Shown here one piece after another: positions 1 through 5,296 of a stretch of DNA of 32,000 nt; position 1 is the stretch's first letter, and each line of letters opens with the position of its first letter. This stretch comes from an uncultured archaeon (GTDB lineage: Archaea > Asgardarchaeota > Thorarchaeia > Thorarchaeales > Thorarchaeaceae), in assembly GCA_964354495.1 (NCBI GenBank), contig CAYHAA010000001.1, positions 364,827-396,826 of the forward strand, read 5' to 3'. The notes below the pieces were generated by a model. The model ran no database searches. It had not been told where the DNA came from and saw only the letters and a list, made by a program, of their open reading frames with translations. A program made the translations under genes and the position numbers.

Positions 1-1907
1 CACTGGAAAACGTAGAGCTAGATGATACGAACTTGCGCGCCATAGCGATGGCTTGTGATGCACTAGAAGTCGATGGTGTTCGGCCGGATATCGTGATTAG
101 CAAGACAGCAATTACACACGCTGCATTTCAAGGCCGCACAAAGGTCACTCTTGAAGACATGAAGCTTGCTTCGCAACTTGCTCTAAGTCATAGAACCCGT
201 AGAGGCGGTCTCTTGGAGCCGCCCTCTTCTGGCGATATTGATCGAGCAATAACAAAAGCAGTGGACGTTGCAAAGAAAAACGACCGCAGGAAATCGCCAA
301 CTGAAATTCCCAAGGAGGACGAAGAGACCGCTGAGCAGGGAGAGCGACGAAGCGGAGGTCGCTTTGGCAGGCAATCAGGTTTTGCTCAATTTGGAAGACA
401 GGAGGGCAAAAAAAAAACTCCCGGTAAAATAAGAAGGCCAGAGGGCAATCCCATCAAGGGCACAATATGTGCAGTGATGATGGTTGTTAGTTTTAGCTAT
501 TTTCTCTGGATCTATGCAAGCCCTGTGAATTGGCTGTTTGGTTCCTGGATTCTTGAGTTTCCTCCTCTCCATGTCATCATTATTGACACTATCATCTATA
601 TCCCTCTTATCTGGCGACTCGTTAGGAAATGGCTTGAAGTCATGACTCGGCGAAAGAGCGGACCAACAGCCGGAATCGACACAGTGGAACCAGGTCGCGC
701 CATGCCTGAATCTGGTGATGAGTGGGGACTAGCGACAAGACCCTATGTTCCAGAAAAGCCAAGCATAATTACAGGGCCAAAATCCGACATTAGAGAATCT
801 CCTTTTGGACTGGACGATAGTTTCTTTGTCAAGATGCCTGATATCGACACAGGAGAAGAGATCTTCGATGGTGAAAAGCTCCGGATGAGGGCCATGATTC
901 GCTCTCGCGTCACAACTGGGAACTGGATAAACAAACGAGTGAGCTCACGAGCATTCGGGTCTCTGAAGTCTACTGGTGCAGTGAAACATGGAAGACCTAT
1001 CCGATCCCGAATGCCTGCCCGCGAAATCGAGAGCATACATGTGCCTTCAACGGTAATGGCAGCAATTGTCAGGACCGGTCATGCACAGCATTTGCCGATT
1101 AGAATCACGCGTGATGACCTTCGTGAGAACATGTTTGCTGGCAAGAGCCCTCTTACGATAATTCTTGTCATCGATGTAAGTCTATCAATGAAGGGCAGCA
1201 TGGAGGAAGTCAGGCAACTACTCGAACGCATTGAGGGCGAAACCCGTGGTTCCAAGGATCGAACTGGGATAATAGCGTTCAAGGATAGTGGAGCCGTGGA
1301 AGTTCAGGCTCCTACAACCAATTGGAATAAGATCTACAGAGTTCTAGGCCGTCTAAGGATATCTGGTCTGACACCGCTTGCAGATGCTCTCCGAAAGGCG
1401 TTTGAAACCATTCAGAGAGAGCGAATGAGGAATCCTGACATTGAGCCTTTTGTCATAGTTATTTCAGACTTCTCTCCGAACATCCCGCTAGCTCAGTCCG
1501 TTGGGCCCGGTGACAGTCAATATACCCCCGTGCAAGACCTCATCAGGACTTCTCGAATGTTGCGAAAGGCGAAGATTCGAATGGCCGCTATCAATGTTGA
1601 CCCAGAACAGAGCAAATGGCCAAGATTCCTTGAACGTCCCTATCATGAAGCGCTCGAACTAGCAGCGATGCTTAGAGCTAGGAAAGACGGTCTTGATGAT
1701 CCGATTGAAGCAGTTCTTTCAGTAGACGAGTTTAGGAGATCTTTTGGCGCTTATCTTGTAGCTAAGGCCGGGGGCGGTCGAGCACACCTTTCGCGAGACC
1801 TCATGAAGGAGAAATCCATACTTCGGACACTCTTGCTTACTGGTAGAACTAGGTCGCGATTTCGTGAGGAAGACTTGAGAGAGATTGAAGCGTATCTTCC
1901 AAAATGA
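1..1907 (+). CDS. ChlD/ChlI-like chelatase-family AAA+ protein with internal transmembrane hairpin and C-terminal vWA domain (5'-partial, frame open off the left edge)
   Basis: The frame is open from position 3 (LENVELDDTNLRAIAM...). The segment ALEVDGVRPDIVISKTAITHAAFQGRTKVTLEDMKLASQLALSHRTRR resembles the ChlI/ChlD AAA+ lid. The vWA domain has the MIDAS motif DVSLS plus GLTPL and ISD, preceded by a ChlD-like HGRPIR...DDLRE segment. Two hydrophobic helices at about 465-623. Confidence 0.8.
   Translation, partial: LENVELDDTNLRAIAMACDALEVDGVRPDIVISKTAITHAAFQGRTKVTLEDMKLASQLALSHRTRRGGLLEPPSSGDIDRAITKAVDVAKKNDRRKSPTEIPKEDEETAEQGERRSGGRFGRQSGFAQFGRQEGKKKTPGKIRRPEGNPIKGTICAVMMVVSFSYFLWIYASPVNWLFGSWILEFPPLHVIIIDTIIYIPLIWRLVRKWLEVMTRRKSGPTAGIDTVEPGRAMPESGDEWGLATRPYVPEKPSIITGPKSDIRESPFGLDDSFFVKMPDIDTGEEIFDGEKLRMRAMIRSRVTTGNWINKRVSSRAFGSLKSTGAVKHGRPIRSRMPAREIESIHVPSTVMAAIVRTGHAQHLPIRITRDDLRENMFAGKSPLTIILVIDVSLSMKGSMEEVRQLLERIEGETRGSKDRTGIIAFKDSGAVEVQAPTTNWNKIYRVLGRLRISGLTPLADALRKAFETIQRERMRNPDIEPFVIVISDFSPNIPLAQSVGPGDSQYTPVQDLIRTSRMLRKAKIRMAAINVDPEQSKWPRFLERPYHEALELAAMLRARKDGLDDPIEAVLSVDEFRRSFGAYLVAKAGGGRAHLSRDLMKEKSILRTLLLTGRTRSRFREEDLREIEAYLPK
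408..417 (+). repeat. A10 homopolymer in the linker of the ChlD-like gene (candidate slippage/frameshift site)
   Basis: GGC AAAAAAAAAA CTC at 405-420. TAA occurs at 425-427 in the -1 frame and at 430-432 in the +1 frame. Confidence 0.9.
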
Positions 1908-3992: not shown

Positions 3993-4163
3993 CTACAAGT
4001 CGTAGGGCTTGAGCGTCTTGCGCTTGTTCTCACTTGTTCTGACAGCGGCGGCACCAAGGATCTCACCGATTTTTTTATCGAGAGCCTCGTAGAAATCACC
4101 GCTCACTTGAAGATTCTTTTTCTTAGCATAGTCTTGAATTGCTTTCTTAACGACAAAACTCAT
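3993..4163 (-). CDS. Short histone-fold protein, 56 aa (face-to-face / truncated-alpha3 type histone)
   Basis: MSFVVKKAIQDYAKKKNLQVSGDFYEALDKKIGEILGAAAVRTSENKRKTLKPYDL has the histone-fold pattern VS..F...L and RKT..P.DL, ending right after L2. Start moved from 4280 to the ATG at 4163, which is preceded by GGAGG (4175-4179). Confidence 0.8.
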   Translation of the reverse strand: MSFVVKKAIQDYAKKKNLQVSGDFYEALDKKIGEILGAAAVRTSENKRKTLKPYDL

Positions 4164-4208
4164 TTTGTATGTTTCCTCCGTAGAGTGCCCTAAATGGCCC
4201 CTAAGTCG

Positions 4209-4216
4209 TATATAAG
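4209..4216 (-). promoter_or_regulatory. Putative archaeal TATA box of the histone gene
   Basis: CTTATATA on the minus strand about 45 nt upstream of the ATG, with a purine-rich AAAG just upstream of it. Confidence 0.55.
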
Positions 4217-4513
4217 GCTTTACAGAGAAGGCAATTATTGGGCGCCTTTTGGCTGTTTTGACGGATTTGCGCATCTTCAACAGTCAGTGCAATTAGTGTG
4301 CAACAAACAGATTCCGATATCTCTCATTCGGTTCCCGAAACAACGATAGTATCCGACTGATTTCTCCTTCAACAGCCTCTTTTGAAGACCGTTGAAATAC
4401 CGCCGCTTGACCTATCTCTCCTTTGTGATTCTGATAATAGGTTTCTCAAAACATCTAAAAGACACAGTCGTCAAATCAACTCTAGAGCTTTAGTGTCAAG
4501 GTGAGATTGAAGC

Positions 4514-5296
4514 ATGAGGTATTCACATGGAATCATCTTTGGTGCGATAATTCCGGGCATCATTTTCTTGGGGGCCGCTGTTATCAAAATCGCTGGCATT
4601 GGTGCAGACGCAGCCATAATAGAAGCTCTTTGGAATGTCTATGTAGTATGGTTCCTCATAAGCATCATTTTTCCGATTAGTTTCCTGATTATGATACGCT
4701 TTGCAAGAAAGGATCTCTTCACGGAGGTCCTGATTTTCATGGCGGGGGGCTTCTTCTTCTTCTCCCCACTCTGGCTGTTCTTTGCAACAGAGATTTCAGG
4801 TGACTCTTGGACGGATCTCTTGCTGAAGGGAATCACTTCCGGACTGATAGGTTTCGGGCCAAGTAGCACGATTGTCGGGATTGGTATTAGCAATGTGTTT
4901 CTAGTGCCGTTTCTCATTCTGTCCGTGATTCTTGGAGTTGTCTTTCTTAACCCCTCCTTTGTAGCAAAACACACCGGTCCTGTGGAACTGCCAGAACTTA
5001 CTGCACTGAAAGAAACAGCCGTGGGATTGGAAGAGGACTCGATTGAAGCCGAGATGCCAGATGTAACTCCCCCAACGACCACTGCCGATAGCGTAGCAGC
5101 CCTCAGAGAAGTCTTGATCGAGTTGGGCACAACGGACCCCGTGATCAATCTCATTCTCAATTCGGGAATTGGAACCATTACTGACCTTGCTGCTACAGGC
5201 CATGACCAACTCTCAAACCTCTCTGGACTTGACAGACACGCAGCCGAGAACCTTCTGATATCGGTACAGAAGCGGCTCTGGTTCAGTGATATTTAG
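4514..5296 (+). CDS. Multi-pass membrane protein with acidic linker and C-terminal helix-hairpin-helix (RadA N-terminal-like) domain
   Basis: About 4-5 hydrophobic segments in aa 1-150. The C-terminus LNSGIGTITDLAATGHDQLSNLSGLDRHAAENLL resembles the HhH_5/RadA-N pattern. Confidence 0.6.
   Translation: MRYSHGIIFGAIIPGIIFLGAAVIKIAGIGADAAIIEALWNVYVVWFLISIIFPISFLIMIRFARKDLFTEVLIFMAGGFFFFSPLWLFFATEISGDSWTDLLLKGITSGLIGFGPSSTIVGIGISNVFLVPFLILSVILGVVFLNPSFVAKHTGPVELPELTALKETAVGLEEDSIEAEMPDVTPPTTTADSVAALREVLIELGTTDPVINLILNSGIGTITDLAATGHDQLSNLSGLDRHAAENLLISVQKRLWFSDI

Follow-up and report, generated by a model that had tools for sequence, protein, structure and literature searches.

A conserved poly-A run in a chlD-like gene of Thorarchaeota: a probable recoding site for soluble and membrane-anchored products

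The chlD-like gene and its poly-A run

The window – the whole 32,000-nt stretch of Thorarchaeaceae DNA analyzed here – begins inside a chlD-like gene on the forward strand, which is also the strand of every feature below unless stated otherwise. The gene starts at a TTG codon 768 nt to the left of the window (G000:C1:364058; L001:9232), its 3' part occupies positions 1–1907, and it encodes 891 aa in frame up to a TGA at 1905–1907. In order, the protein comprises a ChlI-like AAA+ module, a linker, a two-helix membrane hairpin and a vWA domain. The N-terminal 340 residues form a ChlI-clade AAA+ module whose Walker A and Walker B motifs, both intact, lie together with a Cys-rich insert left of the window; a domain match to the AAA+ lid (PF17863) spans 42–233. 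Next comes a charged Gly/Arg-rich linker (234–407), variable in orthologues, that leads to a run of ten As. Beyond the run lies a two-helix hydrophobic hairpin (450–650), predicted to be a membrane anchor from hydropathy over the orthologues and an AlphaFold2 model (helices 15–37 and 54–81, pLDDT ~80). Net positive charge follows the hairpin, and a low-confidence spacer separates it from the vWA domain (PF13519; 1158–1472), which has an intact MIDAS (DxSxS at 1173–1187, with the later Thr and Asp conserved).

Against PDB structures the N-terminal half matches ChlI (6l8d, E 4e-99). The vWA domain matches BchD weakly (E 2e-4), and a fold search with it returned generic vWA matches only, the vWA of NorD being among them and not specifically so. 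The 891-aa protein scores below all curated ChlI, ChlD and cobaltochelatase cut-offs in NCBIfam: 568.8 bits for TIGR02442 (cut-off 779), 385 for TIGR02030 (467) and 301 for TIGR02031 (500). Its named relatives are Thorarchaeota. A protein search with the hairpin region returned four proteins (493–534 aa) and missed known in-frame orthologues; the search therefore carries no evidence on distribution. Within its own genome (97.7% complete) the gene is the sole ChlI/ChlD-like gene found, with one strong match, and the separate chlI-like gene that the original prediction had set as a check was not found there.

The A10 run (408–417), TAA stops in both shifted frames and ATGs at 477 and 480, all described in the original prediction, are confirmed by the sequence. 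Read in frame the run gives G-K-K-K-T and the frame stays open to the terminal TGA. With one A added (an A11 message), or after a –1 ribosomal shift, reading passes into the –1 frame and ends at TAA 425–427, giving a 398-aa product with the tail GKKKNSR; with one A removed (an A9 message) it passes into the +1 frame and ends at TAA 430–432, giving a 399-aa product with the tail GKKKLPVK. Off-frame stops close by are, taken alone, weak evidence for recoding. The run itself is beyond chance: there are only four A/T runs of ten in the whole 3.3-Mb genome, and among 162 Lys-Lys-Lys triplets in long ORFs just one is written AAA-AAA-AAA, where about six are expected from an AAA usage of 33%.

The other long runs include an A10 (G000:C10:13264) and a T10 (G000:C2:4710). 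The latter stands between two frames that are open for 118 and 186 codons and offset by one base; it is possibly a second slip site, or an assembly error.

Conservation of the run in orthologous genes

If the run is used for recoding, then a poly-A run flanked by off-frame stops is expected at the same place in orthologues. The run is indeed conserved: at least nine As occur there in 66 of 68 orthologous junctions (from 67 related genomes in 15 genera, so that junctions do not count as independent events). Elsewhere in the orthologous genes the longest A run is seven, and 41% of the Lys codons are AAA. The phase of the gene around the run is another matter. In 59 junctions the gene is split, such that one extra A is needed to enter the long frame, and in only six is it in frame as in the window, where the run is A10 as against the A9 of most relatives and of two same-species contigs (X1 and X5). 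Three junctions that look like +1 cases were disregarded: a scaffold gap interrupts one (G046), another lacks the G just before the run (G042) and the third has an A8 (G024).

In most split orthologues plain reading stops 9–13 nt after the run, for a product of ~400 aa, and an extra A leads into the hairpin–vWA frame. The expectation of conserved flanking stops was thus borne out for one side: a stop matching 430–432, which closes the short ATPase ORF where the gene is split, is present in most, whereas the position of 425–427 is not conserved. Likewise, the proposal of recoding at A10 keeps its core, a conserved site at the boundary between the AAA+ module and the TM/vWA part, but the in-frame state from which it started is the minority allele and has reversed polarity.

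The best overall explanation of these sequences, with high probability, is that the chlD-like gene is of the frameshift type and its A-run a programmed recoding site. That one gene gives two products, one a short soluble ATPase and the other long and membrane-anchored, appears slightly firmer still; this part of the original prediction remains the best reading, given the conserved run and the lack of a separate chlI-like gene. Both proteins would share the same active AAA+ N-terminus, the soluble ATPase having ~399 aa and the longer form (~891 aa) adding the membrane hairpin and a vWA adaptor. For the A9 of most Thorarchaeota, plain reading would yield the short form, and the long form would need one extra A. 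In the genome studied here a one-base expansion to A10 at the DNA level would turn this around: plain reading would lead to the long form and a slip in either direction to the short one. The A10 allele may be tolerated because both products stay reachable.

One gene or two, and the status of A10

A further prediction concerns the 20 codons that separate the first ATG from the run (417–476). If the vWA part were a separate gene starting at that ATG, these codons would not be translated in split alleles. The last 15, however, are protein-conserved in the long frame: upstream of the first conserved ATG, pN is 0.145 and pS 0.79 in that frame, with the other frames reversed, and entropy by codon position is 0.54, 0.30 and 1.52, so it is third positions that vary. 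Purifying selection acts in the long frame only, and the 15 codons are therefore translated; since in split alleles they can be reached only by a slip, two separate genes are rejected as the main reading.

The original prediction had named as its alternative an assembly error that fused a ChlI-like ATPase gene to a TM-vWA gene starting at ATG 477/480. It is easy to see where such a view would come from. In split relatives the tandem ATG (477–482) is where annotation begins the 'second gene', NCBI annotates the gene of OWC2 as two (RDE15777.1, RDE15778.1), and a Met stands at or adjoining 477/480 in all 68 junctions. Yet the ATG lies inside the first predicted membrane helix, which a start there would cut, nothing would explain why the A-run is retained, and other Asgard families have the orthologue as one ORF of ~740–890 aa. 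Together with selection on the 15 codons before the ATG, this makes an accidental fusion of two genes highly improbable. Nor does an A9 run imply two genes, as had been supposed: A9 relatives are still best read as carrying one recoded gene. An additional internal start at 477/480 may still give a third product. Almost as improbable is phase variation at the DNA level, in which slipped-strand mispairing would toggle the run between A9, giving the short ATPase alone, and A10, giving the fusion alone, and no recoding would take place within any one cell. The run is polymorphic within the species, and one bin (G081) holds both forms on two contigs (L029 on C195 and L043 on C247, A10 in frame and A9 split). 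These two copies, however, are ~6% apart in DNA and differ at many further sites; they represent different strains, or else a mixed or contaminated bin. Moreover, A9-type split alleles dominate in 15 genera and the long-frame segment is nevertheless under strong selection, the spread of lengths is narrow (one step), and ChlI/ChlD-type systems require both subunits in one cell.

More weight is due to the possibility that A9 was miscalled as A10 in sequencing or assembly, and that the gene is an ordinary split form. The same-species contigs X1 (depth 37) and X5 (depth 12), from two other studies, are short by one A; the short ORF of relatives in the 90% cluster ends in KKKLPVK or KKKLPEK; and the remaining in-frame alleles, too, are one base longer than their sisters. 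Against this, X1 and X5 are other strains, because 3–4 SNPs separate them from the window, and the run is the only indel relative to OWC2 (the nearest species) over the first 6.4 kb. A second assembly (Logan, ERR3804373) reproduces A10 and shows no difference from the window's genome across 4173 nt; it probably derives from the sample behind that genome and is therefore not independent biology. The in-frame state appears, furthermore, to be inherited. In-frame alleles have about five origins on the tree, and sister genomes G056 and G070 (support 97/100) are both in frame. The first A of the run in G056 is a G in G070, a difference that a homopolymer miscall would not create and that indicates inheritance. 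In-frame A10 or A11 runs also occur in three of seven loci of another Asgard family (the other four being split), one of them in a single-contig genome. A miscall is on this evidence unlikely, and A10 is probably a real minority allele with reversed polarity and no fusion of two genes. The conclusion of recoding does not depend on the choice between A10 and A9; only the polarity in this one genome does.

Polymerase or ribosome

The slip could be made during transcription or during translation. We lean towards slippage by RNA polymerase over ribosomal shifting or sliding, and both may act. This preference draws on the length and phase of the runs. Split alleles include 40 A9 runs in phase 0, seven A9 in phase 2, six A10 in phase 1 and three A11; that is, at least nine As are kept in all three codon phases, with one A7 exception (G027). 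In bacteria, runs of nine A or T are an established substrate for polymerase slippage (PMC5009743); our literature search found no documentation of slippage by archaeal RNA polymerase. Poly-A chelatase cassettes shift 10–63% in E. coli reporters, in which longer runs raised shifting and the mechanism was left unresolved (PMC3711429). Both Lys tRNAs (anticodons CUU and UUU) are present in the genome, with introns of 23 and 17 nt (tRNA scan); in Thermus dnaX a pair of Lys tRNAs has been tentatively tied to polymerase slippage (PMC5009743, review).

The same two products would arise from –1 frameshifting or sliding of the ribosome on AAA codons, a compatible variant that we consider a real, if lesser, possibility. 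Every split allele holds a correctly phased A_AAA_AAR heptamer (A_AAA_AAA or A_AAA_AAG), published chlD cases have been read as ribosomal (PMC9227772), and another Asgard family has, at the same boundary, a phased T_TTT_TTY with a –1 stop three codons on. The heptamer, however, requires just 6–7 As, and runs are longer than this in 58 of 59 split alleles. A conserved downstream RNA structure was not found (mean z –0.3 to –0.5, near control, with an empty consensus fold; a hairpin ~30–65 nt downstream in single folds is absent from the consensus), and no fixed Shine-Dalgarno-like motif was found upstream, where there are only purine-rich Gln/Glu/Gly codons. The exceptional allele is the best natural test case between the two mechanisms: in G027 (L060) a G interrupts the A9, and directly before the stop there is an A7; its sister G026 has both runs. 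The retention of A7 alone seems to fit ribosomal –1 shifting better.

Possible function of the two products

The original prediction took the two products for chelatase subunits. This seems doubtful: CobN/ChlH (PF02514) was found in none of 87 genomes of the class, the control being positive in five of 14, and because no large subunit was found the two products are probably not subunits of a chelatase. CbiX was likewise not found in the genome itself, and the neighboring genes suggest no chelatase partner or target. The syntenic neighbors are a divergent PALP (threonine-synthase-like) gene, a downstream AIR-synthase-related gene, and surE.

From its motifs the short form would be a soluble, active ATPase, and the long form would carry ATPase and vWA on one side of the membrane. 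The two forms may assemble into one ChlI/ChlD-like ring tethered to the membrane. Such an AAA+/vWA remodeller would grip a membrane-associated target by its MIDAS while the ring pulls; by analogy with the ChlI/ChlD and MoxR/vWA pairs, ring assembly and pulling on a MIDAS-held target are probable.

Relation to known systems

Frameshifted chlD genes with poly-A sites are published, including archaeal cases and genomes free of the large subunit (PMC3711429, PMC9227772, PMC5009743, PMC8211752). The original prediction was right that such genes with A-rich linker sites have been described; they appear as a 'magnesium chelatase' frameshift cluster in Antonov et al. 2013 (PMC3711429) and as fs-chlD in Kuznetsov et al. 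2022 (PMC9227772, citing Antonov 2020). The Thorarchaeota genes resemble fs-chlD in having a ChlI-like AAA+ module and then a vWA domain in one gene, a poly-A or A_AAA_AAR site in the linker with –1 polarity in most relatives, and no separate chlI. Orphan fs-chlD genomes are similarly without a large subunit; they are termed 'stage 1', with function unknown, and what ChlI/ChlD-type pairs lacking the large subunit do is stated to be unstudied (PMC9227772). Archaeal examples are Methanocaldococcus and Methanococcus. In contrast, the genes described here belong to an Asgard lineage and carry a membrane hairpin between the halves, so that recoding would switch the product from soluble to anchored. 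They also differ in that the usual (not universal) 3' stimulatory RNA structure was not found, and in that in-frame alleles keep the run: the halves lie in different frames in X1, X5 and 59 relatives, but in one frame in the window.

The in-frame allele is closer to dnaX of Thermus thermophilus, in which an AAA+ protein is likewise encoded by an in-frame long ORF with a run of nine A/T and nearby stops in both other frames, and one gene gives a short and a long subunit. Further likenesses are both polarities across species, the presence of two Lys tRNAs and a run of at least nine kept regardless of codon phase (here with the one A7 exception). The gene, however, is unrelated (a clamp loader) and the polymerase bacterial (PMC5009743, PMC3711429), and the mechanism is experimental in T. 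thermophilus while for the Thorarchaeota gene we infer it.

Two groups of AAA+/vWA machines offer comparisons at the protein level. ChlD has a largely degenerate AAA+ module, whereas the Thorarchaeota long form keeps intact Walker motifs. In ChlI/ChlD and CobS/CobT of class I chelatases the likeness lies in the N-terminal half, which matches ChlI structures, and in the intact ATPase motifs and MIDAS; scores below the NCBIfam cut-offs, the membrane anchor and the lack of a detected CobN/ChlH set the Thorarchaeota protein apart. MoxR-type pairs such as NorQ/NorD, RavA/ViaA and CbbQ/CbbO are remodelling systems that also combine an AAA+ ring with a MIDAS-bearing vWA adaptor acting on another protein. 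Here, by contrast, sequence places the ATPase in the ChlI clade (from the best family and PDB matches), and both parts come from one recoded gene.

We found no paper on frameshifting or TM-bearing ChlD in Asgard archaea or Thorarchaeota, in a search that was short on subscription literature. Since the device itself is already published, no new mechanism is gained; what is new is the lineage, the architecture and the test system. What the window adds is an A9/A10 polymorphism within a species together with evidence of heritable reversed polarity. Proven cases of recoding in archaea are few, and a cassette that is conserved across a class and whose natural alleles show either polarity offers a way to tell polymerase slippage from ribosomal shifting. 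There is also a practical consequence: in database annotation of Thorarchaeota one gene is split into two, and the membrane-anchored fusion is missed.

Other Asgard families and gene neighborhood

Candidate cassettes of other kinds occupy the same linker in a sample of 40 loci from other Asgard families (source names, used inconsistently, include Hodarchaeota/Promethearchaeota, Heimdallarchaeota, Baldrarchaeia and Freyarchaeum, among others). A10 or A11 runs occur in orthologues that lack the hairpin, either in frame (L119, L121, L129) or split with –1 polarity (L124, L126, L127, L128, L137), the run being shifted ~30 codons downstream in L127 and L128. The TM-bearing genes of one family (f12; L098–L114) are in frame and have a phased T_TTT_TTY in 12 of 16, ~140 nt after the AAA+ module; in 13 of 16 a –1 stop follows three codons on, formed where AR comes after a CCT Pro codon, and a similar hairpin begins just beyond it. 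From sequence this T_TTT_TTY is a candidate –1 site of dnaX polarity. Elsewhere TTT-TTT-CG stands shortly after the AAA+ module, both in split genes that continue from it in the +1 frame (L123, L134, L135) and in genes that are in frame (L118, L120, L125, L131), and is a candidate +1 recoding signal.

These cassettes suggest a broader and decidedly speculative reading, which we think doubtful as a whole: an orphan ChlI/ChlD-type motor of Asgard archaea would have repeatedly evolved different recoding cassettes in its linker, with flipping polarity, and in Thorarchaeota a slip by the archaeal RNA polymerase would set the ratio of soluble to anchored forms of a previously undescribed membrane-protein remodeller that is not a chelatase. 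Two families would use A9–A11, a third a T-heptamer followed by a –1 stop, and others TTT-TTT-CG with +1 polarity, and polarity would flip both between and within species. If this is true, the natural A9 and A10 alleles already provide the material to test for programmed transcriptional slippage in archaea.

Three further ORFs were noted around the gene. About 2 kb upstream of it (L001:6397–7107, +) an ORF resembles, by eye, an ESCRT-III coiled-coil protein (Snf7/Vps2/24-type), and within the window a small basic ORF (3993–4280, – strand) resembles, again by eye, a histone-fold protein. The third (4514–5296, +) is syntenic in 17 of 25 Thorarchaeota loci and encodes a conserved membrane protein that has an acidic linker and, at its C-terminus, weakly matches a helix-hairpin-helix domain (E 0.001).
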